From a virus (taxonomy: Duplodnaviria > Heunggongvirae > Uroviricota > Caudoviricetes): a DNA stretch of 17,861 nucleotides. Where the stretch lies: IMG/VR virus record IMGVR_UViG_3300021387_000285. One strand, written 5' to 3'. Below the pieces are notes generated by a model. It was not told the origin of the DNA, ran no database searches, and was given only the letters and a program-made list of their open reading frames with translations. Position 1 is the stretch's first letter, and each line of letters begins with the position of its first letter. Of this stretch, positions 108 through 17,637 are shown piece by piece. A program made the position numbers and the translations under genes.

Positions 108-714
108 ACGCATCTATCCAATAGATAGAAAGATTCTTTTGTATCTATTCAAGCTGGGCCAATTTCTAAATAAAATCATTATTAACTAAAATATCTTGTG
201 CGCTAATTGTATTATAGTTATGATTGGCGCCATTTTTAGTTGCCCAACCAACTAATACTCTAGTTTTTGCCACCAAAGTATTTAATTCATATAATAATTC
301 TCCAGAGGTGGGATTAACTCTAAAAAACTTAAAGGAGAACTAAACTGAACCACCATATTTTGTTACAGGACTTTGAATATCCCAAGCAAAAATCATTTTA
401 CCAGTTTTGCTTACTACATCAAAGTAAGGAATAACATAGTAATACTCTTCATTTTTTGCATTACGAAATTCAACGATTCCAATACAAGTAGATAAATCCA
501 CAGAGTCATAAAATCTATCCATTTCAAAATAGATTAACTCTGCTTCATGGTCAGCTTCTACACCAAGAAAACTTGGTGTAGAAATGACCCTTGAATTTAA
601 ATTAATTTCATATACTGGTTCATCAGTTGGTATTCTCATTCTTATACTAGGAGGATTATATGACTCAGCAATAGACGCTAAGAATCTTTGATATTCTTCA
701 CTACCAGTAACCAT
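106..714 (-). CDS. 202-aa BppU N-terminal-like (upper baseplate-type) protein, read with TAG=Gln
   Basis: ATG 712-714 with RBS AGGGGG at 723-728. Code-11 ORF 340..714 continues through TAG at 340, 166 and 145 to TGA at 106-108 (...KYGGSV*FSFKFFRVNPTSGELLYELNTLVAKTRVLVGW...DFI*KLAQLE*IQKNLSIYWIDA). The GVEADHEAELIYFEMDRFYDSVDLS...IFAWDI...G.VQF...F pattern resembles BppU_N-type domains. Clear paralog of part of 739..3054. Confidence 0.8.
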
Positions 715-738: not shown

Positions 739-3054
739 TTATACAAGAACTGCTTTAAATACGTCAGTATAACCGATACGAAGAGTTCCGTGATAACGAT
801 TTTCTGTACGAATACGATAAATACCAGAATCTTTATTAATTACAAAGGTATATGCGCCATCTGGATGGTCTGCATCAACATAAGTAGCATCAAAGAGAAC
901 TTCAATTTCATCTGGATCTGGATTGGTCTCAGCATAAGAAAGCTTCCATTCACCAGTAGCAGGATCTTTGTAAACTTCTTCAACATAGTAAGAAGTGATT
1001 GCATCTGCATACTTATTAGCAGCTTCAGTCTTATCATCAATAACGAATAAACGTTCTGGATAAGTGTTATTTAATTCAATTGCGCGACCTTCTTCATTAG
1101 AGCCTTCAGGACGAGCACCTTCTTCAAGCATATAAACTTTATCAGTACCATCAATAGTACTAATATCAAGTTTAGTAATCTTTGGAGCAATGAAAGAAGT
1201 TACGATACTTTCAGAAGGTTCAGAGACATTATAAGTATGGTTGCGGCGGTTGATTGCACGCACACGATACTCGCCTTCTTCAGTAACGCCAGCAGCATTA
1301 ACTTGTTTTTCTCCACTTTCTGGGAGAATCTCAAATGTATAATCGCCTGCAAGAATATCTTCTTCTGTTAAGTCGCTAATCTACTCATTCTTTAAAACCT
1401 CAACAGCAACAGCGCCGAGTGGTTCATCATTAGAGCTACTAACAACAGCTTTAATCACAGGAGGAACACTAGCAGAAATATACTTATAATTGGTTTCTTC
1501 AATAACTTCATAGTCATCTTCATAAGCAGTATCAACAACTAAAGAAACATTTGGTTTAGCAGCAGGAGGCACTAAGCAAACATTACTTTCAATTTCGTTA
1601 CTAGTGGTCTTAATATAAGTACCATTAGGACGAACAGCAATCTTTTCAGCCTGTGCTTTTACTTGATATCTGCCAGCCTTAAGAGCATTGTAAGAAGAGC
1701 CTAATTCATAAACTTCAACTGTTGGGTCATCAAATGCTTCTTGAATAGCATCACCAGCAAGAGGAGTTGTGTTAATAGTGCCATCATCATTTTTTACATA
1801 ATAGACAGACTTATCATTTGGCTCTGTATCAGTAGTAACAAAATAATCACTTGGCTTAGTAATAATTTCAGCAGGCTGAACGACAGCAGGAATACCATCT
1901 TCAACAGCAGAATACCAAGTATATTTCATATCAACAAGACCAGGAGCATAGGCTTGAGTGATAATTGGTAATGTTTCTGCTTCAACACCTTGAGCGTCCA
2001 TAACAAAGTTAAGTTTTGCAGGAAGTCCAAGAGGTTTGTTTTCTTCATCAAGAACACCTAATTGCCACTCTGGGTCAGCAATAGGAGTAACTCCATCAGG
2101 ATTGTAAGCACTATTAGAAAGACGTGCTAAAGCAGCTGCGGCCACGCTCTTAACCTTTGTTGGGTCTTCTAAAGTTAAACCTTCATTAATTGCTAAGGTA
2201 GCAGTTTGAGTGTTAAAGCTATAGTTGATAAGGTCATTATCAGTATCATAGCAAGTAACTGCAAACTGAAGAGTACCTTTAACAGGTGTCATTTCATTGG
2301 TGATAAAGAAACCAAATACGACATAACCTGGCTCTAACTCATCATCTTTTGCAAAAGCAACTTGAGTCTGAGTTTCTTCATATGCGGGAACACGAGAACC
2401 ATTAGGAGTAAAGTTCCAGTTAATGGCAATCTTAGTTTCCATAAAGTCTTGATGGTCAAAATATCTATCAATCTTAAAGACAATTAATTCAGCCTCATGG
2501 TCTCCTTGTACGCCAACACCATATTTCTTGAAATGTGCAGGAATATTGATAACTCTTGTATTAGCATCAATTTCAAAATAAGGTTCATCAGCAGGAGTAA
2601 CGAGAAGGAACTTACCATCTTCAAATTTAGAAGTCTGTAAAGCAGCAATTGCTTTTAAATTACCAAAATAACTTTCAATAGAATCAATAACAATGCCAAC
2701 TTCTTTTGCTTTAGCAACAGCGGCATCAGCAACATCGCTTGCTAACTCAATACCAGCTTCAATATTTGCGGCACTTAAGTCGCCTCCATTAGCTGTAGAG
2801 TTTTCATATAAAACAGAAGTAAAAGCATCAACTAAAACTTCTTTGGAAATGCTTCTTACTTTTTGTTCAGATACAACAGATTGAAAATATGCTTTTATAT
2901 TAGCACTACCACCAAGCTCATCTACTTTACTTCCAATAGCAGAAACAATTTCACCACGAACAGTAGGTTCAGAAACTGCTAAAGCATTAGTGATTTGTTC
3001 AAATCTAGGAGCAAAAAGTTCTATATCATTAGCAGAAGTGATTTTTGTAATCAT
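739..3054 (-). CDS. 771-aa structural protein: BppU_N-like domain plus C-terminal Ig-like repeats, read with TAG=Gln
   Basis: ORFs 1381..3054 and 739..1263 are in frame and joined by one TAG at 1381 (VLKNE*ISDLTEEDILAGDYTFEILPESGEKQVNAAGVTEEGEYRVRAINRRN). Ends with TAA at 739-741. RBS-like AAAGGAAG upstream of the ATG. BppU-like region about 2170-2700. Three G-x-Y-x-[VI]-x-[AT] motifs (KAGRYQVKA, EEGEYRVRAIN, DSGIYRIRTEN) resemble Ig-like F strands. Confidence 0.8.
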
Positions 3055-3086
3055 AGATTCTTTCTCTTCCTTTCTATCATATTTTG

Positions 3087-3113
3087 AGAGGGAGAAAAAG
3101 TTTTTCTCCCTCT
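3087..3113. promoter_or_regulatory. Intergenic stem-loop (terminator-like or 5' leader hairpin)
   Basis: AGAGGGAGAAAAA-G-TTTTTCTCCCTCT perfect inverted repeat. A T-rich tail follows on the plus strand (TTTATTTA) but not on the coding minus strand, so its role in minus-strand transcription is unclear. Confidence 0.6.
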
Positions 3114-3156
3114 TTATTTATTAAAATAATTGTAATTTAAATAATCTTAATTGGCC
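3112..3156 (-). promoter_or_regulatory. Candidate promoter-like motif upstream of 739..3054
   Basis: Minus strand GGCCAATTAAGATTATTTAAATTACAATTATTTTAATAAATAAAG aligns without gaps to the copies at 26-71 and 10459-10504. Overlaps the stop of the 67-aa gene. Confidence 0.3.
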
Positions 3157-3350
3157 GGAACTTCCCACCAATTTCCAATTTCCTCTTCTGGAACACGGAC
3201 TGATTGTTTTCTCTCAATTCCATCGGTTAAGACTTTATCTTTGTCAGCAGTTAATAAAACTATTCTAACATAATAAATATCTTCTAAATGGACTGGAGAC
3301 TCAATAACTCCATTAGTTCCAAGATATCTGTAAAAAACCTATCTTTTCAT
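3147..3350 (-). CDS. 67-aa small protein (possible tail-fibre assembly/accessory factor); absent from the code-11 ORF track
   Basis: RBS GGAGG (3358-3362), ATG 3348-3350, TAG at codon 4, TAA 3147-3149. MKR*VFYRYLGTNGVIESPVHLEDIYYVRIVLLTADKDKVLTDGIERKQSVRVPEEEIGNWWEVPAN. It fills the gap right after the giant gene. Function inferred from position only. Confidence 0.8.
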
Positions 3351-3368
3351 TTATTAGCCTCCAATCTA

Positions 3369-6300
3369 TTAACCTGTTGCCTCAATAGTATCAATAGAAC
3401 CACAAGACAATTTATTAGTAATCGTGTCAGAATCTAAGCCCATAATTGGATTGTAATAGAATGTCACAGGAACAGGAGTGGTAGATACTAATAACTATCC
3501 ATAACCGGAACCTTGGAAGATACCAGTGCCCCATTGACCTGGGTCTAAAGTGAATGGGTCATCAACATTACCAAATCTTACGCTGCGAATTAACGTACTA
3601 CTGAAAGCACGGTTACTTAATTCAACTACATTCCCTGGTAATCTTAATTCTTTATCATGTAAGAATGTATCAGTAGCAAAATTAGGAGAGGTCTGCGCGA
3701 AGGCATTCTCACCATATGCAGTGATTCTACCAAAGAAATTATCAACATCTTCTTGAGTTATCTTATCGCTCTTAAATAAATTAGTGCATCCTGAGAAGCC
3801 ATGATAAGGGACTGTGAAGTTATTTACTGGGATTTCAAAATACATTAAGTTAGGATATACTTTACCAGCGAAACAACTCTAACTAAGAGTATTGACTTTA
3901 CTTCCACGTTCCCAGAAGATATGAGTTACACCAGGCTATTCAATACCTGCAGTAGCAAATATTAACACATCTTGACCGTTATATTGTGCAGGAAGCGTAA
4001 TTTTACCCGTTAATCCTGCTTTTGCAACAGATAATGTTTGAGATATTGGACTAAAGTTAAACCAACTCATATCTGTCATAACGTTATCGTGGACATCTGC
4101 TTCTACGAATGTAGCATACAGATTTAAATCACGAAGAACAATAGCAGGAGGAGCTTGAGTTACTTCAGTAGTATCTTCTGAATTCATTGAATATCCATTA
4201 AACTTATAAGTTCTTGTTAATGCTAAATCTGAATCATCTTTATAAGGCATTATACTTGGGCCAACTAATGCTGTATTATAAGGAACTTTAACAGGTGCGC
4301 CACCTATTAACTCATCACCAACATAATAGTAAACATTATGCTCATGAATTTTAAATTGTGCATACAACACTAAAACGTTCTATGACATAGTATAAGTGAA
4401 TGCTGCTAATTCAGTTTCAGCATTTGGATATGTTCTATTTTCAAAGTCATAATTTAAGAACATATTATTACCTGCAATATCAGTACTCCAACCAATAAAG
4501 TCATAGTGAGCCTTTGAAGGAACAACTGTTGTTAATACAGGATGCTCAACAGTACTTGCTAAACGGATAACACTTAATTCATTTTCACGACCATCATCAG
4601 TAGCTTGAACATATTTTACAATATTAGATTCTCTAACATATTTTGCAAAGATAGTTAATTCAGGCCATTTTTCTGCATAAACACTAGTTAAAGTATCTTC
4701 TTGAATTGGAGTTTGTTCAGTATTTTCAACATAAATAACACCAGTTAATCTTGGTAAAGCAGCAGTGCTACTTTCCATATTAGTATAGTGATTTAAGTGA
4801 GTTGTAGTTGCTAAACCATTTTCATAGTCCTAAAGGAAGAAATCTAATAAGTCTAATGATGTAATAATTTCTTGGTCTGGTGAGTATTCATAAGTATAAA
4901 TCTTACCATTCAACAATAATTGCTGCCAAGTATTTTCATCATAAGTATAAGGAACAAATGTACTATGGTCAGTAACCTGATAATAATTAGTATTAGAATC
5001 ATACTCATCATAAACACTTAATTGAGTATATGGACACCAATCAATATTTTCAAGGTTAATCTTTAATCTTGTGCCGGAAGCAGCTATTTTTTCTTTTGCG
5101 ACAATTGCTTTACGTAATAACTTATAAGAATCATATTTTAAGTTACCACCAACAATCTTAATGTTTATTAAACTAGAAGCACTTTCAACATTACCTAAGT
5201 TCTTCCAAGTTAATTGTCCATCTTGATTCTCTAAAGTAACTGCGCTATCATCAACATCAGTAATGCCTTCTAAGTACAATCCTTCATAAGATTCATGCGG
5301 ATAGAAAGCAGAACCCTCAGCAATACTTTTTCTAATCTTAGGAGTAGAAGTGAGTATATGAGTTAAGTTTTTAGCTTCAACTAAACCAATACCATTAACA
5401 GTCTTTGGTAAATGAACTGTATCTAATGGAGCACCTTCAGCAAACACAACACCTTGAATAATAGTGCCGAGCGCACGGAACTCTTGTAACTTTTCAGAAC
5501 CAGAAACATCAATAGCATAATTCAATTGAGTCATATTTGTAAGAATAACTTTTTGTAATAAAGTTTTTCTATTTACATTTAAACTACTACCGTCTTGAGT
5601 CTTTAAACTATCGTTCAAGATAAAGTTAGCCATACTACGTCCATTGTAGTATCCTTCAATATCACTACCAAGAGTCAAATCAAGTAATCTCTTTGCACTT
5701 GGAATCTAGAATTGGTCAAAGTATTTTGTACTTAAATCACCTAAACTAGAAATGTATGAAGGACCTGGGATACGAGTAATCTGTTGTGATAAGTTAGGAG
5801 TCTTTTTAAATCCATCCAAAATTGATTCAGATACATAAGCCTAAACAGGTTCACCCTAGAACTTAACAGAACGCCCTGAAGGAATCTTATCAATAAATGT
5901 GAAAACATATTGTTTTAAGAAAGGCGTAATCGTATATTCTGGGATAGCATCTAAATATTCAACAGGATATGGAGCTAAACTACTACCAGCATTTGCATTA
6001 GAAGGTAATTCACTTAAGGAATTAGAATCTAAGAATAAGTCAGAAGTCTGACCTGCGTTAGCATTTGCACGAACAATAACACAACCATCATCACCAGAAA
6101 CAACTTCAGTAGAATAGTCACCAGCTCTCCAATAGGAGTCAAGATAGTTAAGTCTATTTCTAATTAAAAGTTCACGAGATAACATACGGTCACCATTGAT
6201 AGCATAAACATAACCATAGCTATCTGGAACAACTTCACCTTTAGTATTATAATAACCAGCAACAGATGGTTTTAAATACTTAACATATTCATCTAAACCA

Positions 6301-9300
6301 ATAGCAATAACAGGTCTTACACCGCGCATTGCATAAGAATCAAATACGCTAGGGTCACATAAGTAAGCACCTTCAACATTTGTTTCAGTTAATTTAGAAG
6401 CACGAAGTTCTTTATATGTGTTAATAATCTTTGTCTCATAAGTGGCTGCGAAGTTAACCCATAAAATACTAGAAGGAGTAGAGAATGTACCATCTTTACT
6501 TGCATCAGTATCATAGTCCCAAAGAGTAGCACCGATATTATTCAAGCCTAATTGAGTATCAATATCATAGAAAATAGGATACCAAATATAGTCTCCACCT
6601 ACTTCTTTTGGTCCCCAAGTAGCTAACATCACATTTTTACCACGAGAGTCATAACATAATAACAATTCAGTTAAAACATAATAAATAGCACAATAGTCAA
6701 CATTAAAGTGCTTTGGTAATTCTGTTCTGAACTTTGCTAAACGATATGCAGGAGTATCTTTATAATAAGTTGCAGAATAAATACCATTGTTTTCAGTATA
6801 AGTGATTTCACCTGGAATATTTTCTCCACCTGCGCTGACCACAACTGGGCCATAAGGAGCTGCTAAAGCTTCATTAGTAGCTTTTGCAGTATTAGTAGAA
6901 TCTAACCAAGTAGTAACAGCTTCTAAGTTTCTGTATTTATCTCTTAAATACTGATTGATTTGTCCAAAAGTACCTAATTCTTCTGGATATGCTTGTACAT
7001 CATAATCATAGCAAGCATCAAGTTCATCACCATAGGCGCTATATCTATATTCAAAGTGGTTAATCACTTCTAACTTTGGTTCTGCTACTGGATTACCATT
7101 AGCATCATAACTATCTTTTTCATAGGTGCCAAAGTAATAGTCATTACGGCCAGGCACATTTTTATTCTTTTCAGCATCACTAGGATACGTGAAGGAAGTC
7201 CAAGTACCTTGGTTATCACAAAGTTCCCAACATTCAGCGATATCAGCAATTGCAGGATGTGTGCCATCTTCTAATGTAATATATTTCTGTTCGCCTTCAA
7301 CTTCAAAACCAAAATATTCATTAGAACCTTTATCTAAGTTCATATTATATCTACCGATATACTCATAGATTTCATCTTCATAAGAAGTACCAATCTTTTG
7401 TTTATCGCTAGGTTTGCTGTGTTGATGAAAAACAAGAAGTGGGAATCCATAAACACTAGTACGAAGACCAGCAGTAGAAACACCATCAAAGTTATAATCA
7501 TTTAATGGATGATAATCATACATTTTACCCATTAAGTTAGCAAAACCAGTATTGTAAGTTCCAGAAGATTCCATAAAGTCAATCTTCCAAGTGAACTTAT
7601 TAGTAGCAGCATAGTTACTATCAACACTCCACTTTTTAAAGCGTTGACCAGCTTTAGAACCTTTACTATAGAACCAACCCCAATCATCATGGGTAACTTT
7701 TTCAGCATCTTTCTTACCAGTAGCACTCTTCATTTTGGTCTTAAAGTTACGACGAGGATAACCTTGTGAAGAAGTACCCTGAACGTTAATATCTGCGCCA
7801 ATACATACATAGCTAGGGCAATGACTATAATAAGTTTCCTCATTTATCATACCAAACTCTAATAAAGCATCTGCAACAGCATTAACAAATGTAATCTTAC
7901 AATAACGATTACCATCTTTAACATATGGTAAACGGTCATCATCAGTACGTCTCTATGTCTTAGTTGGGTCGCGCATTGAAGTATCATTATCAATAATTTC
8001 AATGACCGCATAAGGCATCATTAAAGCATTAAAATCTTCTTCAAGTAATACTTGACCTTGATTTCTACGAGTTTCTAAGTTAGAAATAATTAAATCATTA
8101 TATGCTTTAATTTTACCTAATGATAAAGCAGTTGCATCATCATCTTTAGTTAATTGGTTCTGGTCATAAAGAGTTAAATCATGAATATCAGAAATATAGT
8201 TATGAATAACTTCTGGCATTGTTAAAGGTTTGATATTTGTACCTCTATAAACACGAAGTTTATAAATATCAAAGTCACAATACTTAGAGTTAATTTCAAA
8301 CTTATTAGTATTAGGAGTAAATCCATTATTACCAATACTAACAGCACCACTTAAGATACCATTCAAGTAAAGTGATAATAATCCACCTGCTTCTGCAGTA
8401 ATGGTTAAACTAATAATTTCATCTTCTTTATAACGCACGTTAACTGTAGTATCAGGAGTTTTGAAATATGCTTCTTGAGTACCTACGAATAAACCTTGCT
8501 TAGTCTGTTCATCATAATACTTAAAGCAAACGCCTTTTTCATGCTCAGTAATCTTTGGAGAATTAGCTTCATCCATAATCCAGTTACCATCTTTATCAGT
8601 GGCAATTGTTAATCCTTGTGCCTTAATATCTTCAATATACATGGAGTTCTCCATTTGGACTCCATTCTCATCAAGAACAAAGTAATATGGTAAAGTTTTA
8701 ACCAATGTAGAATACTCTTGAATATTCTTTACTCTAAATCTTAATTCAATAGTATAAGATTGATTCTAAGTATTAAAGCCCATGGTTGTGAAGTTAATGT
8801 CTGCCGAAGCACCATTAGCAACAGATAAATAGGAACCTGCTCCATCATTATCATTTTTCCAACCATTGTTATACCAGTTGAAATCTTTAAAAGTAGTAGT
8901 GGTTATAATTTCATCTTCATAATTATAACCCCAAGCAGCTCTCTTTGCGGCAGACTCTTCATTAGAACGGCCAGCAGAAGAAAGGTTTAAAATCAATGCG
9001 CCAGAATCAACAAGACCTAAGTCTCTTGACCCTTCTGTAGTAACATTAAAATTAATTTCTTTATTTTCAGTTCCACACTGAATAAGGAAACGGTTTGCGC
9101 CAACATGGTAGCTTTCAGTTAAGTCCCAAGTTAACCAATCAATAGAACTAGAAGAATATTGTGGATAAACTGTAGCAATTTCTTCATTAAGAATACTATC
9201 AATTAACTGAACTTCAGCTCTTGAACCAGTAGCAACTTTAGCTGGGTCATAAACCATATATTTAATAACGCATTTCTCATATTGAATAACAGTATCAGCA

Positions 9301-10379
9301 TATTCTTGCACCCAAATCAATGGAGTTGATTCATTAGGGTCTGCCCATGCTAATTCATAACTGATTTCATCACTATAAACAACGTTACCTCTAATTGCGG
9401 CACCAAGTTTCAAAGAAATAGTATGAACGCCATGAGGTTGAGCTGGAATACGCACTGAGCGCACTGTAGTGCCTGGATTAACACTTGCTACTAAGTTATC
9501 TGCTAATATACCATCAATAGAAGGATAAATAGTTAATGCTAAACTATTACCACCTTTAATAAAGTAGTTAACGGTAGCTGCGCCATTTAAAACTGTATTT
9601 GTTAATTGTGAATTATCTTTTGCAATACCTAATTCAACAATATTTAATCCAGTAAATTGTTTTCTAAAACCAGTAGGGTGGGATAAGCTATTTGGAGAAA
9701 TTAAAGTTACAGTCATTAACAGGTTTTCCCCAGAAGGGATTTGACCCATATTAAACTTATAGACTTTATTAACTGGCACTCCAATTGCCTAAGTCTCAAA
9801 AACTTTTTCATTAGTTGTAGCATTTACAACTTCAAATAATAAATTAACATAATTATCATATTCGGCTTTTGGAGTAAACTCTGCATCAGAATCTTGCCCA
9901 TAAACAAAAGTCATATAAGAATTAATAGTATTGGTATTGAAATCTAAAGCTACATCAGTCCTTGATGGACTTTCTCCGCCGCCTCCACCACCACCAGAGC
10001 CTCCTCCGGTTCCGCTTACTGCAAGTAACACAGCTTGGATTTCTTGAGACGCTGGGTCGGCTGATAATACTCTGAAAAATCTGCCATCAGCATTTAATAT
10101 AAGAGTATCTGGTTTTAATGTGACAGTAGTATCTTCTAAAGCAGCATATTTGATAGTATAATGGTAATCCGTATCATCAGGTGAGTTTTTAATAATTGTA
10201 TTTACATTACCTGCGGTATAAGCAATGCCAGATGCGCCACCACCAATGGTATAGCGCGTTCCTTGCTTATCAAGGTAAATATTACCGCTATCATAAGCAA
10301 AATAGACATAACCTTCACGGATTGGTAACTAACTAATTGCGCTTTCCGTACCTCTTACAGGTTGAAATATTTCTGCCAT
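3369..10379 (-). CDS. Giant 2336-aa multidomain tail-associated protein with CotH kinase-like, LamG-like, LRR, InlB B-repeat-like and BspA-LRR-like regions, read with TAG=Gln
   Basis: Eight code-11 ORFs (3495, 3936, 4380, 4830, 5856, 7953, 8766, 9789) share one frame. All gaps were hand-translated and contain no TAA/TGA. 12 TAGs, at 10329, 9789, 8766, 7953, 5856, 5841, 5706, 4830, 4380, 3936, 3879 and 3495. Start MAEIFQPVRGTESAIS*LPIREGYVYFAYDSGNIYLD with RBS AGAAAGGAG (10388-10396); stop TAA 3369-3371. The single ORF is firm; domain calls are by motif inspection. Confidence 0.88.
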
Positions 10380-10413
10380 TATATATACTCCTTTCTCCAA
10401 TTAATATAATAAA

Positions 10414-10447
10414 AATAAGGGTAAGGAATATATACCTTACCCTTATT
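10414..10447 (-). terminator. Terminator-like hairpin between the 560-aa fibre gene and the giant gene
   Basis: 13-bp perfect inverted repeat AATAAGGGTAAGG (10414-10426) / CCTTACCCTTATT (10435-10447), 8-nt loop. On the minus strand it runs into TTTTTATTAT. It lies 17 nt upstream of the giant gene RBS. Confidence 0.65.
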
Positions 10448-10458
10448 AAATATTCCTT

Positions 10459-10504
10459 CAATGGAATATAAAAATCAAAAGAAATCAGTTAACCAATTCT
10501 GTCC
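10459..10504 (-). promoter_or_regulatory. Candidate promoter-like motif upstream of the giant gene
   Basis: Minus strand GGACAGAATTGGTTAACTGATTTCTTTTGATTTTTATATTCCATTG; same GG[AC]C...TA...TTTT..TA spacing as the two other intergenic copies. Confidence 0.35.
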
Positions 10505-10509
10505 TTTAA

Positions 10510-12192
10510 TTAGAAGCTACCCCATACTAAATCAATATTGACAGAGTAAGTGTTGCTACCAGATTCAAGAGCAGGAGTTGTAACTTCTAAGTTGCTGGAA
10601 GAGATTTTGAAATTACCAGTTGAAGAAGCATTATCACTATCTTGAACAGTAATTGCAACTGTTGCTGTACCACCAGCGCTAGAATCAGTAGAACTATTAG
10701 CAGCGGTATTGATACCAACAATTACATTTTCAATGTTAGCATGGCTATCATTTAATACATAATTTTTTGCGCTAACAGCAGTAACGTGGCCTGCGGCATC
10801 CTTAGAAATACTTGTTACTACTGGAATAGTAACTTGTTTCTTGCTTGCGCTTTGAGTAGTATCAACATCAGCAGCTTCAACTGTAATAGCAGTGCCAGTG
10901 CCGGCAGCCCCGTGAGCAACTGTTAATGTATTATAACCACTAGAAATACTAGGAGTAACAGAAATAGTACCATAAGTATTAGAGCTACCATTTACTCCAA
11001 TACCAGCAATAACGCCAGCACCATCAGAAATAGTAATACCATTACCCTCGGCCGCACCAGTAATAGTCTGCTCATCGCCAGAAGGAACAACTTCCCATTC
11101 TACGTTACCATCAATGCCAGAAGCAATGATTAAGTCACCGGTCTTTGCAGTAACGCCATTAACATTATTGATGTTGCCTGCTGCTTTATAAGTTGTACCA
11201 ACTTTTGGACTTTCGCCTGCAACTTCAGTAGCGACTAATTTTGTAGCAGCTGTTGCTTGAGTAATAGTACCAGCATACTCCATAGCGTCAAAGCCTTTTA
11301 ACTCTGCAGCAATCTTATCATCAACTTGACCTTTAGTATAAACATCAAGTTGAGCAGTGCCACTAGCAAAAGCAGCGGTAGTGCTGTAACCAGTACCATA
11401 AGCAATAATAGGAGTTACAGCATCACTATTAATGTCTGTAGAGACACCTTCAAGTGTTGTAATGAAAGCACCATTAGGACCAAAAGCATTACTTACACCT
11501 TTGATACCCTGTGCGCCAGAAGCTGTACCAATAGTGATTGTACCAGCATCATTGCTAGTAACAGCCATACCAGGGCCAGCAGCAATAGTAATATTCTGCT
11601 TTGCACCAGTAGAAGGAGTTAAACTAATAACACCTGAGGTAGCATCTGCAGTAGTACCAAGAGTATAAGTTGTATTATCATTATCATTCTGAGACTCAAT
11701 AGTAATTGTATTGCCACTGCGAGAAACAGTTACATTATTACCACCTTGGATTGAGAAGTTACCAGAAGCGCTATTGGTTGCAGTATCAGAAACTGCCATA
11801 GCGATAGTAACTGTACCAGAACTATCAGAAACATTAATAGCATTATTGCTTGCGCTTAATTTAGTATCTGGGTTTAACTGTACCCAAGTACCTGCGGTTG
11901 GATTTTTGCAAATTGCTAATACATTCTGATTTTCCCAATAGTACATATCACCAGCTTGAAGATTTTCATATCCAGAAGTACCACTATTAGGAAGGTCACT
12001 TAAACTTGCTAAAGCTTTAATTCTAATATATTGGTTAAGGTCAACAAGCTTATCAGCAGCCTGTGCAAAATATAATCTATTAGTATCATTAGTTAAATAA
12101 AAAGTACCCTCAGTAAATCTATTACCGCTACCATTTAATAAAGTATTAATACTGGATTGAGAGCCTCTTTTAAAGTTTACCTTTACACTCAT
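10510..12192 (-). CDS. 560-aa tail fibre / receptor-binding-like protein
   Basis: Intact ORF, no TAG, TAA stop, RBS AGAAAGGGG (12201-12209). Mtd_N-like start (VNFKRGSQSSI...EGTFYLTNDTNRLYF). Rich in Gly/Thr/Ser/Ala/Asn, consistent with a beta-rich fibre. Contains fibre-like motifs DVYTKGQVDDKI...AMEYAGTI and VVTSISKDAAGHVTAV; ends LVWGSF. Confidence 0.75.
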   Translation of the reverse strand: MSVKVNFKRGSQSSINTLLNGSGNRFTEGTFYLTNDTNRLYFAQAADKLVDLNQYIRIKALASLSDLPNSGTSGYENLQAGDMYYWENQNVLAICKNPTAGTWVQLNPDTKLSASNNAINVSDSSGTVTIAMAVSDTATNSASGNFSIQGGNNVTVSRSGNTITIESQNDNDNTTYTLGTTADATSGVISLTPSTGAKQNITIAAGPGMAVTSNDAGTITIGTASGAQGIKGVSNAFGPNGAFITTLEGVSTDINSDAVTPIIAYGTGYSTTAAFASGTAQLDVYTKGQVDDKIAAELKGFDAMEYAGTITQATAATKLVATEVAGESPKVGTTYKAAGNINNVNGVTAKTGDLIIASGIDGNVEWEVVPSGDEQTITGAAEGNGITISDGAGVIAGIGVNGSSNTYGTISVTPSISSGYNTLTVAHGAAGTGTAITVEAADVDTTQSASKKQVTIPVVTSISKDAAGHVTAVSAKNYVLNDSHANIENVIVGINTAANSSTDSSAGGTATVAITVQDSDNASSTGNFKISSSNLEVTTPALESGSNTYSVNIDLVWGSF

Positions 12193-12209
12193 TATTTTTT
12201 CCCCTTTCT

Positions 12210-13193
12210 TTATTCACCAGAAGTAATTTCATTCCAAATTAACCGAGCATAAACATCAGCTAATTCATCTGCGATAGTAGAAGTATTATCACCTGTAACG
12301 GCACGTAAATTATTAATATCTCCTACTTCGTTATTAAACTTAGAGAGAAGAACATAATTACTTTGAAGATTATTTGTGATTAAGCCATCAATTTCATCTT
12401 GTCTAACATAATCACTTAAATTAACACTCCATTTTCCTAATTTTTCAAAATTAGAATTAACATACATATATTCATCATATTTATTACTGGTATCTTCAGA
12501 GCCATTAGGAACTAAAAATACTGTACTATTGATATTCTCAACAGTAGTATCTAAATTTTCCAATGTTTCATCTGGACCTAATACTTGATATGATAAATGA
12601 TTATTATTTAAAACATCTTGTCTAATTGCTTGGACTTCAGACTTTAAACTTGATACATCAGTCTCTAATGTATCAATTCTGTCTAATACACTTTGACTTG
12701 TTAAAGATGCCCAATTTGACCCAGTATAAGCATAAGGCTCACCACTAACAATAGCGATATCACCTTGAACAGGATTACTTACTATACGGTCAAGAGCTTG
12801 AGAAATACTTTCTCCATCATTTTTTGTTCCAGCAATTACTCTATCATTACTAGAACTACTGCTACCACCTGGAGTAAATCCAGCATTTTCTAAAGCAGTT
12901 ACAATTGAAATAGGCTTCCAAGTTTGGCTTTCTATTTCATAATGAAGTAACATCCCATCAGCTAAAGTAGCATCTGATAAATCCACATCTGCTAAGTCAT
13001 TTAAATTCGTAACAGATGAAAAACCAGTACCACCAATTAAACGAGACCCTAAATAAAGCAAACCGCCTTCTTCAGGAGCATTTTGTCTTTCATATACAAA
13101 ATACAAAGTATTTTCGTCTAAATTACCCGCAGTCTTACGTCTATCAAAAATAGACTTTAAACCACGTTCAAATTTAACAAAATTAACTGCCAT
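12210..13193 (-). CDS. 327-aa tail fibre/adaptor-like protein
   Basis: Intact ORF, no TAG, TAA stop, RBS GGAGAAAGGG (13200-13209). Mtd_N-like start (VKFERGLKSIF...ENTLYFVYE...LLYLG), LNDLADVD...DGMLLHYE...W tail-repeat-like motif, heptad segment LDRIDTLETDVSSLKSEVQAIRQDV, and VFLVP...NKYDEYMYVNSNFEKLG..VNLSDY motif that I recognise from Firmicutes phage fibres. Confidence 0.7.
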   Translation of the reverse strand: MAVNFVKFERGLKSIFDRRKTAGNLDENTLYFVYERQNAPEEGGLLYLGSRLIGGTGFSSVTNLNDLADVDLSDATLADGMLLHYEIESQTWKPISIVTALENAGFTPGGSSSSSNDRVIAGTKNDGESISQALDRIVSNPVQGDIAIVSGEPYAYTGSNWASLTSQSVLDRIDTLETDVSSLKSEVQAIRQDVLNNNHLSYQVLGPDETLENLDTTVENINSTVFLVPNGSEDTSNKYDEYMYVNSNFEKLGKWSVNLSDYVRQDEIDGLITNNLQSNYVLLSKFNNEVGDINNLRAVTGDNTSTIADELADVYARLIWNEITSGE

Positions 13194-13260
13194 CTTTTAC
13201 CCTTTCTCCTTCCTCTAAAAGTTTTTTATCCATTATTATTCATTTTTTTAAGTATATGGA

Positions 13261-14505
13261 TTAACTTAAATTGTCTATGAGTTTCCAAGCATCAAAGTCA
13301 ATATAACAATGAGAAGGTGTAATCGCCGTAGTCTTAACAGTAGCACCAGTAGAATCTGTTGTTGTAGTAGCATAAGCATAACCTACTGTTTCTGGTTTAT
13401 GGTCAATAAAAGCAGCATTAGAGTTCTCATTATAAGTTGTTGTCCAATCACATTGCAGATAATATCTAACTTTACCACTTAATGGGTCTGGATAGGTATA
13501 TAAGCTACGTAATAATCCAGTTAAGCCTTCTGTATTATTAGCTAAAAAACCTCCAATGCTAGGAACTGAAGATAACCAAGATTCGTCATCTGTATCAATA
13601 GTTAAATCAGAGCCATTTAATGCGCTAGCTGCTTCCCAATACTTTTTAAAGAATGGGCGCACATTAGTTCCATCATTACCAGGCACACCATATAATAAGT
13701 CATAAAGTTCTGACATAACATTACCAAAAGCAGGTAAATTAATGACTAACTTTTTCTTATTAACTAATTTTGAGTCTCCTGACTAATCTACATCTTCTGC
13801 GGCAAGCCCTTCTGGAATCCAATGAATATAAGAATGATAATCATTAGTTCTTTTGCCTACATTATAAACAACATTAAATCCATTACGATTATAATTAATA
13901 TCTTGCTCATCTGCAGCTAATTCAACAGACCTTGGCATCTTTAAGAAGTAAGAAGATTCAGTGCTCTTGGCTTCATCAAATGCAGGTTGAACATAGTCAA
14001 CCTGCACTCTAGGAAGTAATACTGGAATAGTCTCGCCGTTCTATTCCTTTAAAACATACACTTCTTCTGCATCAGCAGCATTGTCAGCATATTTATATAA
14101 TAAAGGCTCATTAATATCAATTTCAAATCTTGGGGCCATTGCATTTAATTCAGCAATCATAATATACTTTTCACCTTCGGTTAAAGTATAAATCTTTTGC
14201 CAAACTGTTGAATCATAAACGGCACCAAATGCTTCAAGGTCTTCATTTAAGCTTTGAGAATATTCCTCTGTCTATTGGATATAGTAATAAACCTATCCAT
14301 CTTGAACCATTGTCATATCCCCGCCACCAGGAGCTTGTTTCTTTTCATAACGAATACCATTATTGCCATAATTTATCAATACATAGCGACCAATATAAAC
14401 TCCATCAGTGGCGCATTGTGCTTCCATTTCAACTCTTGATTTATATTCTCTATCAAACTGAAATTGACTAGTACCAACTCGTTTTACATTTCCATATAAA
14501 CTCAT
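13261..14505 (-). CDS. 414-aa hypothetical tail/baseplate protein, read with TAG=Gln
   Basis: ORFs 14293..14505, 13783..14007 and 13261..13716 are in frame; TAGs at 14293, 14272, 14041 and 13783; no other stops; TAA at 13261-13263. RBS GGGGAGGG. ATG overlaps the upstream stop (TAATG). Bridging text includes AVYDSTVWQKIY...KYIMIAELNAMAPRFEI and INLPAFGNVMSELYDLLYG. Confidence 0.8.
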
Positions 14506-14892: not shown

Positions 14893-17637
14893 TCAATATA
14901 CACGTTCAGGCACTTTTACTGCCGTAATCTACATTGTTCCATTATACTTTAATGGAATAGTGCATTTATTTAAAATATAGTAACCATTAACCGTTCTCTA
15001 CTCATCTTTTGCCGAAATAATTGTATTAGGCTCTAAATAATAAATAGGAATTGATGTTAATGTTACATTTTCATTACAATAACCATAACTATATAATAAA
15101 TTATCAATTTCATCATGCGCTGATACACTACGAGTTGATATAGATAATTTATTATCATCAAAATACTGCTAGAAATCATCACTAACAATATAGCTATATC
15201 CAGATGGTAACTAATTAGCCGTGTATGAATCATACATCTCTTTAGTTATCAAAACGACATCTGGAACATCTTCATAAATTATAACTCTTATGGTATCTTT
15301 ATTAACAACTTTAGGCCGGTCACCAATAGCTGGGACAGAGAATGAACCTATACCTAAACTTTCAGCATCAAAGAAATCAAACCAAAAGATTAGTGCTGAA
15401 GGGTCATCAATAATATCTTTATTCCATCCATCTTCATTATATACCTCTTCCTCTAAACCTAATGGATTTTTATCCCAGTTATAAACATTCTCTGGTGCAT
15501 ATAATTGTCGCCAGAAACCATGTAAATCATGATAATACTATTCATAACCTGTTTTACCATTCTAAAACTAGTCAATATCAAACTCTGGGATATGATTATT
15601 TTGATGAATATTAACATAAAAGTCATCTTCATGATTATGTAATAAATAATCATTTGCCATTTGATAAATAATTTCACGCCAATCAACTTGGAAGAATCTA
15701 TATTTTCCATCATATTTTAATTCTTCATATATAGCTAAATCACCTGGTAAATGTGGTTTATATATCCAACTGTCAAGATTACAAAGAGTATCTAATTTCA
15801 TAAAATATTCATAAGTATGAGTACAACCTCTATAACCATGCTGTGTAGGATTCCATCTTTGAGATGCATAATATGGATAAATTGCTGGAACAGCTCCATA
15901 ATATAAATTGCCAGTCGCTTTTTCAATATCAAAAATAGACTAATTACGTAAATGAGTTGTAGTCCCATTTGGCGTAGTAATATCTCCAAAGAAACCAGCA
16001 GTACCATACTATCTTAATTGGCCTTCGGGATAAGAACCAACTAATGCTTTATAATATTCAGCCCAATCTAATACAGTCCACCATACTTCATCAGGATTTT
16101 CCCCTTGCGCTAAAGTAGCCTCACGTAACCACTAAGGCACAGGAGTTTTCTCAATTTCTTTTCCATTAACTTTAATGGTAGTTGAAGTATTCTCTTTTTC
16201 TTTCTTTTCAATTATAGGTGCTAAATATTCATCATAATACTCTTTAGTAGTATAAATCTCTTGATAATAGCTAAAGGTTCTTTCTTCATCTGATGCAGCA
16301 TTTGTCTTAATTGCTTTTTTAAATCCACCATAAAACTAAGGTTTAATATCAATAGCATAACGCATATGAATAGGATACTCTACTCCAGAAACAGGTAATC
16401 GTTTCTTCCCCCAAACCGTATAGTCATTTTTAATATCACCAATTTTTGGAGTATTCTAATAAGCAGTAGTTAAATTACTGCCTTCAAAACTATATTGAAC
16501 TAACTATGAAACAGCTGCAGGCTCAACATAAGTGTCATTATCTCCAAAAATTATATTATTCCAAGGAGTATTAACATAAGTCTTTTTTGCTTGAAATACA
16601 AATTGGCCCTCAATATTATAAAAATATTCATAAGCACCAAATATATTAATAATTTTATCTAAAACAGAAGTAACGGTTTCATTAATACCAGCTATCAAAT
16701 CTTCATCTGGGTAAGTTAATTCTCTAGCATAATAACCAATATCCTTCTAATCTTCAATAGCTAATACCACACATTTTACATAATCATCAATTTCTGGATT
16801 ATAATAACCAATATACGTAGGAACATCCACTTGTGTTGGGTCTAATAATCCAACATCATCTTCTTCTACTCTTTTGGCAAAGATAAAATCATTTTTTAAT
16901 TTTGTAAAATCAACGTCAATAGAAAAACCATAATATAAATAAGAATGATTAGCTACTGTTTTTCCTGGGTCTATAATATCAACATATTCGCCAGTGTCAA
17001 CTTCTTGAACTAAATATAAGGTATTACCAGTCCTATTTCTTAATATTTCAAGACCTAGCTAATCAATATCTTTAATAACAATATTCTCATAAGGTTCCTA
17101 AGCATAACGATGTATCATTTCACGAATAATGTATGGAATAGAACGTTTTTCTCGGCTATGAGTTCCATCTTCTTGTTCTACTTCTTCTGAACCTAAGACA
17201 GTTTCAGCATTAAAGTTTCCACTGATATCACCATTTAACAAACACATCTTATCTTTTCCACTTAAGGTAATAACATAGTTATTAACCTAAGAAGAAGTTT
17301 TAAAGTCTGTTAAAATATAAACTCCCATTGGAAACCAAATAATATCATCATATGCTGGATTAATTTGATTTAATAAACCAATTTCAATTTTAACACGAGT
17401 AGTAATACCCCAATAGACATTATTAATATTAAGATTTTTAGTTGTCATAGTTAACTAGCAAATGCGCCGCACACTAGAGGTTCCATCTAGAGTGATGGAA
17501 CCTCCTGTAGCAACGCCCTCTATCCGTTCTATTGGGTATTGGTCAAGTGTTAAAGAAGTAAGTCGTACGAAAGTTGTCCTATTACGATTATGGTCTAATT
17601 CGCGCAAAAATAAAGTATCAAGTAATGGATTTTGCAT
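14893..17637 (-). CDS. 914-aa probable baseplate hub / distal tail protein (tentatively DUF5047/DUF5048-like), read with TAG=Gln
   Basis: RBS AGAAAGGAG (17647-17655), ATG 17635-17637. One frame, open to TGA at 14893-14895 apart from 18 TAGs (17455, 17287, 17098, 17059, 16747, 16504, 16456, 16336, 16132, 16009, 15940, 15568, 15562, 15538, 15211, 15169, 14998, 14929). N-terminal GGSITLDGTSSVRRIC*L...WFPMGVY...LSGKDKMCLL and C-terminal IPIYYLEPNTII...GYYILNKCTIPL...GTM*ITA resemble phage hub proteins. The ORF is firm; the family call is from memory of motifs. Confidence 0.8.

Follow-up and report, generated by a model that had tools for sequence, protein, structure and literature searches.

The closest characterised relative of the protein described here, CotH of Bacillus, is a Ser/Thr protein kinase, and the residues D228 and D251 of Bacillus subtilis CotH are needed for its activity (PMC7821199). 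Here, a giant gene encoding a protein with a CotH-family atypical kinase domain was analysed in a stretch of 17,861 nucleotides of phage DNA (Caudoviricetes; IMG/VR virus record IMGVR_UViG_3300021387_000285), the whole of which is called the window below.

In phages, the CotH-family kinase domain was described by Benler et al. as occasional, fused to a hypervariable C-type lectin and unstudied (PMC8008677). Roux et al. reported PC_00012, a 2,284-amino acid (aa) viral target of diversity-generating retroelements (DGRs) with a CotH-like kinase (bioRxiv 10.1101/2020.04.01.020958), and Macadangdang et al. reported variable proteins of >2,000 aa in which CotH (5JDA) motifs stand beside carbohydrate-binding motifs as well as leucine-rich repeats (LRRs) (bioRxiv 10.1101/2024.11.15.621889). 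Database entries carry similar names: gp19 of the crAss-like phage cr124_1 is annotated in GenBank as 'spore coat protein-like', with the note 'Similar to spore coat protein/internalin/CotH kinase', in BFVD the names 'CotH kinase protein' and 'Spore coat protein H kinase fold' are used, and UniProt viral annotations read likewise. The giant protein of the window is thus a further member of a large, catalogued and experimentally unstudied phage class. A first-pass annotation made from the letters of the window had called it the best candidate there for an undescribed system, which did not hold, since giant phage CotH proteins were already present in the three papers and in the crAss-like and UniProt annotations. 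The same annotation knew of no characterised virion CotH kinase, and our literature searches on phage CotH proteins, on Hankyphage and kinase, and on phage G gp353 likewise found no experimental study.

The giant protein has the features of the class to which the Hankyphage protein belongs: a length above ~1,600 aa, a gene placed after the tail genes, a CotH domain and C-terminal binding domains. Hankyphage p00 of Bacteroides (BK010646.1, 31489–38226, 2,245 aa) encodes a giant DGR variable protein directly after tail genes, which is grouped with two classes of phage DGR targets, 'domain group 3' and PC_00012; its CotH domain is homologous (E of 4e-38 to the hidden Markov model (HMM) of the giant-protein family), has the same catalytic motifs and is likewise followed by C-terminal binding domains. 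However, at its end the Hankyphage protein has a C-type lectin that is diversified by a DGR, and a reverse transcriptase is encoded close by, whereas LRRs form the end of the giant protein, and the identity of the C-lobes is only ∼28%. The crAss-like cr124_1 gp19 (NC_055899, 2,496 aa; 'spore coat protein-like / internalin-like') is similar in size, comes from a phage with TAG-recoded genes and contains the CotH-type motifs DSVMKN and YDMDT, and crAss-like giant proteins were structural matches to the AlphaFold2 domain model described below. In contrast, its tblastn match was weak (E of 3e-3), it was missed by the giant-protein-family HMM, and a 1,389-aa phosphatase-like gene lies directly upstream of its CotH gene, while none was found in the giant-gene lineage. 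Bacillus phage G gp353 (2,055 aa) is giant as well and matches Pfam CotH clearly, and it was the best viral structural match (E of 8.5e-14). It is preceded by gp352, a metallophosphoesterase that resembles purple acid phosphatases and has LTD and Mtd_N domains; no such neighbour was found in the window.

Reading frame, fold and catalytic motifs

The source of the window is a large gut or rumen phage of ∼196 kb in which TAG is read as Gln. Once TAG was read in this way, the many open reading frames (ORFs) found on the minus strand under the standard code became nine genes, and the giant gene ended at 3369 with a stop codon of the TAA/TGA type. Because the ATG at 10379 is preceded by the Shine-Dalgarno sequence GGAGAAAGGAG and homologues begin at the same 'MA', it was taken as the real start; an alternative upstream TTG start at 10400 gives 2,343 aa (translation of 3369–10400, minus strand, with TAG as Gln). 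A 98%-identical protein on record has 2,336 aa and is translatable only with TAG as Gln. The residue numbers used here count from the TTG at 10400, and those of the first-pass annotation, which count from the ATG at 10379, are lower by 7. The CotH domain contains no in-frame TAG and the ORF at 5856–7850 is open in the standard code too, so the domain is readable under either code.

The Pfam profile PF08757 (CotH), with a cut-off of 23.8 bits, matched residues 840–1460 alone with 25.7 bits (E of 1e-5, profile positions 158–274), and the matched region included the catalytic loop and the metal motif. On the whole giant protein the score was 21.7 bits, under the cut-off. The profile also matched 22 of the 39 homologous domains at E < 0.01. 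Phage G gp353 bridges the giant-protein family and the Pfam-positive CotH proteins, which is stronger evidence than the direct Pfam match: gp353 matched Pfam CotH with 66 bits (E of 4e-18, profile positions 2–277) and the HMM of the giant-protein family with an E of 8e-37. When the family was aligned by hhalign with eight Pfam-positive CotH proteins, which had been found using gp353, a probability of 99.7% and an E of 5e-26 were obtained over 364 columns covering both lobes.

The AlphaFold2 model of the domain, built from 39 homologues, had a predicted local distance difference test score (pLDDT) of 78 and a predicted template modelling score (pTM) of 0.80. In the Foldseek search with this model, B. 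cereus CotH (5JDA and 5JD9) ranked first with a probability of 0.93, the E being only 0.025. Structural alignment with 5JDA by VIA-align gave a Z of 14.9 with a root mean square deviation of 4.1 over 310 of 359 residues, and the runners-up, HipA and PI3-kinases, reached a Z of 6.6 or lower. In sequence searches of Protein Data Bank chains, 5JDA was never reached with the domain alone, three family profiles, the domains of NatCom_3357 and phage G, or the profile of the Pfam-positive CotH proteins. The first-pass annotation had placed a CotH kinase domain inside a giant phage tail-region protein and had proposed profile and structure comparisons; with the Pfam score of the isolated domain, the hhalign probability and the Z value above, this was borne out. 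Residues 855–1426 form a genuine CotH-family kinase-fold domain, the match being far beyond chance.

The domain shares with Bacillus CotH (5JD9/5JDA, PF08757), besides the fold, the ordered series of the QG.SS loop, the strand Lys, D-x4-N and xDxD, and each is built into a large protein assembly. The differences are that the identity is only ∼10–12%, with no direct sequence match to 5JDA; that the phage domain is ∼570 aa long compared with ∼360, two large inter-lobe insertions accounting for the excess; that an Arg takes the place of the PKKN Lys; and that Bacillus CotH is a free-standing enzyme of 360 aa whereas the phage domain is one part of a 2,336-aa tail protein.

Conservation was determined in an alignment of 116 full-length homologues, 25–70% identical overall. 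Nineteen positions were invariant in all 116: Q874, G875, T876, S877, R884, N885, K887, K939, D941 and E944 in the first part of the domain, and D1251, R1253, K1255, N1256, W1273, Y1278, D1279, D1281 and T1282 in the second. The most conserved 50-residue stretch of the giant protein was residues 1251–1300 (81% identity), and the least conserved part was its last 200 residues, at the LRR end, where the identity to homologues dropped to 9–25%. The motifs QG[TS]SS, strand Lys, D..[GA]KN and YDxD were also kept in Hankyphage, NatCom_3357, phage G and the Pfam-positive set. On sequence evidence, the domain retains intact catalytic motifs, which are very strongly constrained.

All motif strings quoted in the first-pass annotation were present in the translation with TAG as Gln, and DSRGKN, YDID, QGTSSQGYPRRNFK and FTWKIDFMESS were re-derived at the positions listed in Table 1, in agreement with the coordinates it had given. 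The residues it had named for conservation, K880, D1244, N1249 and D1272 (K887, D1251, N1256 and D1279 here), were all invariant in the family. This agreement did not extend to K880 beyond the family, since other CotH proteins have T, K or R at this position, and it is doubtful that this is the key lysine. All lineages share K939 (K932 in the earlier numbering), which was invariant in the family, in phage G, Hankyphage and NatCom_3357 (Heliusvirales), and in the eight Pfam-positive CotH proteins. In the AlphaFold2 model the strand with K939 precedes a long helix, which is the usual kinase arrangement. D1251 and D1279 would be the equivalents of D228 and D251 of B. subtilis CotH, respectively; this assignment was made from how the motifs are ordered and spaced and from alignment with other Pfam-positive CotH proteins, because the B. 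subtilis and B. cereus sequences were not alignable directly.

Proposed function of the CotH domain

The reading we favour, with a probability of about 60%, is that the window encodes an active CotH-family kinase in a protein of the tail-fibre or receptor-binding type, which probably acts before lysis on itself or on tail proteins. An active phosphotransferase is the best reading in view of the identity and conservation of the domain: from binding alone, one would not expect the full catalytic set to be under the strongest constraint in a receptor-binding protein. The domain would be an active, Mg-dependent phosphotransferase in which K939 and E944 position ATP, D1251 serves as the catalytic base, and N1256 and D1279 bind the metal. 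The enzyme would work in the infected cytoplasm before lysis and phosphorylate itself or neighbouring tail and fibre proteins during assembly; the protein would then be carried on the virion, where its lectin and LRR parts might bind the host surface. We favour this setting because the giant gene belongs to the late genes that contain TAG, and because ample ATP exists only within the cell. A second possibility is that the enzyme might act on the host surface from outside with extracellular ATP. The first-pass annotation had likewise suggested that the virion may display a kinase or kinase-fold adhesin at the tail, with host-surface or spore-coat proteins or the tail itself as possible targets. 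An analogy for the phage protein is provided by Bacillus CotH, which is both a structural component of the coat and a kinase patterning coat assembly.

Several points weigh against an active kinase in such a protein. Little ATP would be available to a protein displayed outside the capsid, and atypical kinase folds with other kinds of catalysis are known. In all 116 family members the lysine of the canonical PKKN motif is replaced by Arg884, although this is a conservative change. The phage domain has ∼200 residues more than Bacillus CotH, and no sequence-level alignment to 5JDA or B. subtilis CotH was obtained. The N-terminal module, when compared with the Mtd_N segment of phage G gp352, gave an hhalign probability of 72% (E of 3e-5), and no match to Pfam Mtd_N was observed in the 26 N-termini examined; a role of this module in attachment is therefore only weakly suggested. 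Finally, no activity, ATP-binding or virion-proteomics data were found for any member.

The conservation pattern also bears on whether the CotH fold might be a binding module or adhesin, whose conserved residues hold a metal or a phosphorylated surface ligand (teichoic acid, capsule or lipopolysaccharide phosphate) with no phosphotransfer, in parallel with the Mucorales CotH invasins as proposed adhesins. The gene stands in a receptor-binding-protein position, and the domain is flanked by binding modules throughout, namely a lectin jelly roll and LRR and Listeria-Bacteroides repeats; ATP is scarce outside cells, and the canonical N-lobe Lys is replaced by Arg. But the full catalytic set is invariant not only in 116 of 116 homologues but also across four distant phage lineages, and no stretch of the protein is more conserved than the catalytic segment, whereas receptor-binding surfaces normally vary, as the C-terminus does here. 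Pure binding is hence considered unlikely.

A conserved active site and a lectin domain directly upstream of the CotH domain would also be compatible with an active enzyme that is not a protein kinase, acting at the surface during adsorption by phosphorylation of glycans or lipids of the host envelope, or by AMPylation-like transfer. Tail-fibre enzymes usually target surface polysaccharides, and kinase folds with glycan or other non-kinase chemistry exist. Nothing in the data points to a glycan substrate, however, the ATP supply outside the cell would still be a problem, and the closest characterised relative, Bacillus CotH, phosphorylates proteins on Ser/Thr (PMC7821199). We therefore give this explanation a small chance.

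Returning to the active kinase, a stronger version of it is that the virion carries a working tail-tip kinase important for infection, either as a switch for the assembly or triggering of its own fibres, or by acting on a host surface component at adsorption. This version is tentative, and we hold it to be possible rather than probable. If true, this would be the first case of a virion-borne, structural protein kinase with a demonstrated function in a bacteriophage, and the lineage would be an example of the enzyme working in the absence of the phosphatase partner found in crAss-like phages and phage G. As of Benler et al. 2021, only two phage protein kinases had been characterised, T7 gp0.7 and the 933W kinase (PMC8008677), neither of which belongs to the virion. 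That a kinase site is strictly conserved in proteins of the receptor-binding type, in thousands of gut and rumen phages with the ubiquitous Hankyphage among them, points to an untested function. The window adds a well-defined family member and a clean negative, an enzyme without a phosphatase-like neighbour, but no new kind of system.

Other domains and the tail module

The order of domains in the giant protein was shown to be a putative attachment module, a lectin jelly roll, the CotH domain, a Listeria-Bacteroides repeat and a variable LRR end (Table 1). In Foldseek, the jelly-roll model was best matched by the lectin-like part of the binding domains of clostridial neurotoxins (E of 2e-10, 10–14% identity). 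This likeness is at the fold level only (concanavalin-like), and there is no evidence of a toxin relationship. For the C-terminal repeats, matches to PF13306 were precomputed for about half of the homologues, and the LRR-bearing end is presumably ligand-binding.

Table 1. Features of the giant gene, its product and neighbouring genes in the window (residues numbered from the TTG at 10400)
Feature	Residues	Position	Strand	Evidence or remark
Giant gene		3369..10379	minus	2,336 aa from ATG 10379; 12 TAG codons in frame, read as Gln
N-terminal fibre-attachment-type module (MAEIFQPVRGTE...GYVYFAYDSGNIYLD)		10221..10379	minus	common to the 560-aa and 327-aa genes upstream
Concanavalin-A-like lectin jelly roll, then helical linker	∼469–719	8244..8996	minus	AlphaFold2 model, pLDDT 89
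CotH-family atypical kinase domain	855–1426	6123..7838	minus	Pfam, hhalign, AlphaFold2 model, structural alignment
N-lobe hairpin and loop QGTSSQGYPRRNFK	874–887	7740..7781	minus	counterpart of canonical QG[TS]SS..YPKKN; 116/116 invariant
Strand FTWK (K939), then DFMESS (E944); FTWKIDFMESS		7563..7595	minus	proposed ATP-binding Lys and acidic partner
Catalytic loop DSRGKN	D1251–N1256	6633..6650	minus	116/116 invariant; within Pfam CotH match
Metal-binding-type motif YDID	Y1278–D1281	6558..6569	minus	116/116 invariant
Listeria-Bacteroides repeat (Flg_new)	1956–2000	4401..4535	minus	Pfam 25.6 bits, E 1.3e-5; cut-off 27, just missed
BspA-type leucine-rich repeats (LRR_5)	2171–2277	3570..3890	minus	weak Pfam match, E 0.005
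914-aa tail protein, 18 TAG		14893..17637	minus	phrog_1887 'tail protein', E 1.3e-9; upstream of fibre genes
Two fibre-type genes, 560 aa and 327 aa, without TAG		10510..13193	minus	N-terminal module in common with giant protein

The same genes were found on a 195,902-bp ENA contig, in the order tape measure (3,616 aa, PF10145), 98 aa, 1,865 aa, the 914-aa tail protein, 122 aa, 414 aa, the 327-aa and 560-aa fibre-type genes and the giant CotH gene, then 67, 771, 202 and 709 aa, after which comes a nucleotide-metabolism module on the opposite strand. The location of the giant protein in the phage tail region, as had been claimed from the letters alone, is supported by its position downstream of the tape-measure gene and beside the two fibre-type genes. 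The homologue in NatCom_3357 comes after the tape measure, Dit and Tal, and that in Hankyphage after a minor tail protein. Such a position and build are those of a receptor-binding or fibre protein. Most of the neighbouring genes gave no Pfam or PHROGs match. The tape measure, by its length, implies an unusually long tail.

The N-termini of the 560-aa and 327-aa proteins showed 22–25% identity to that of the giant protein. These two genes contain zero TAG codons, whereas the genes on either side contain 4 to 18. In the 327-aa protein (12210–13193, minus strand), Pfam Tox-HDC matched residues 122–205 with 21.5 bits against a cut-off of 21 (E of 3e-4); the match overlaps coiled-coil-type matches to NPV_P10, LPP and FlaC and was rejected as a probable coiled-coil artefact. 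The only long direct repeat in the window (584–626 and 2549–2591, 43 nt, 72% identity) is shared between the 202-aa and the 771-aa gene, both downstream of the giant gene, and is consistent with paralogy.

Phosphatase-like genes, DGR and distribution of relatives

In phage G (gp352–gp353, 863–9633 of the locus) as well as in cr124_1 (gp20–gp19, 1736–13392 of the locus), the gene immediately before the giant CotH gene was observed to be a giant metallophosphoesterase gene. Around the gene studied here, no Pfam Metallophos match was obtained in the tail-module proteins tested, from the 1,865-aa to the 709-aa protein, and tblastn with gp352 or cr124 gp20 gave no match in the ∼45 kb context, in which the tape-measure gene was covered over its C-terminal 1,323 aa only. 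In 30 IMG/VR relatives, PF00149 was found only in small frames (174–445 aa) far from the CotH gene. The giant-gene lineage and these relatives thus appear to have no adjacent phosphatase-like giant gene, although a very divergent version could be missed. The 560-aa gene was considered as a phosphatase partner and rejected, since its product showed no similarity to gp352 past the N-terminal module and no Metallophos match.

A DGR in the window was likewise rejected: no pair of template and variable repeats (TR/VR) was found, nor any C-type lectin match in the giant protein. No Pfam match to a reverse transcriptase was found among the eight other long ORFs of the window, no search having been aimed at this enzyme.

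Seven contigs bearing relatives were found in rumen or gut metagenome-assembled genomes (MAGs), assigned to Erysipelotrichaceae, Ruminococcus, Clostridia, Mollicutes and Tyzzerella. Probably they are phage contigs that were binned together with their Bacillota hosts, and the bins give a weak hint that the hosts are Bacillota. This has a bearing on whether the protein might be no virion fibre but a late non-structural or delivered effector kinase that reprograms host signalling (division, dormancy or sporulation), as some of the Bacillota in the bins are spore-formers and Roux et al. suggested such a role for DGR targets (bioRxiv 10.1101/2020.04.01.020958). The neighbours of the gene, however, are tail and fibre genes, and two of them, of the fibre type, encode the same N-terminal module; the binding-type domains and the hypervariable C-terminus suit an external receptor-binding protein, and a multidomain protein of 2,336 aa is unlikely to be ejected. 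An effector role is accordingly very unlikely.

No canonical CotH was found in the plasmid collection. In the collection clustered at 90%, 883 proteins were found, mostly of 2,300–2,500 aa and on contigs of up to 229 kb. Among representatives of 50% clusters, the number of matches was 2,082 at E of 1e-3, 1,427 at 1e-10 and 640 at 1e-30. In IMG/VR, 419 contigs matched, many of which are complete genomes of 150–240 kb with terminal repeats.

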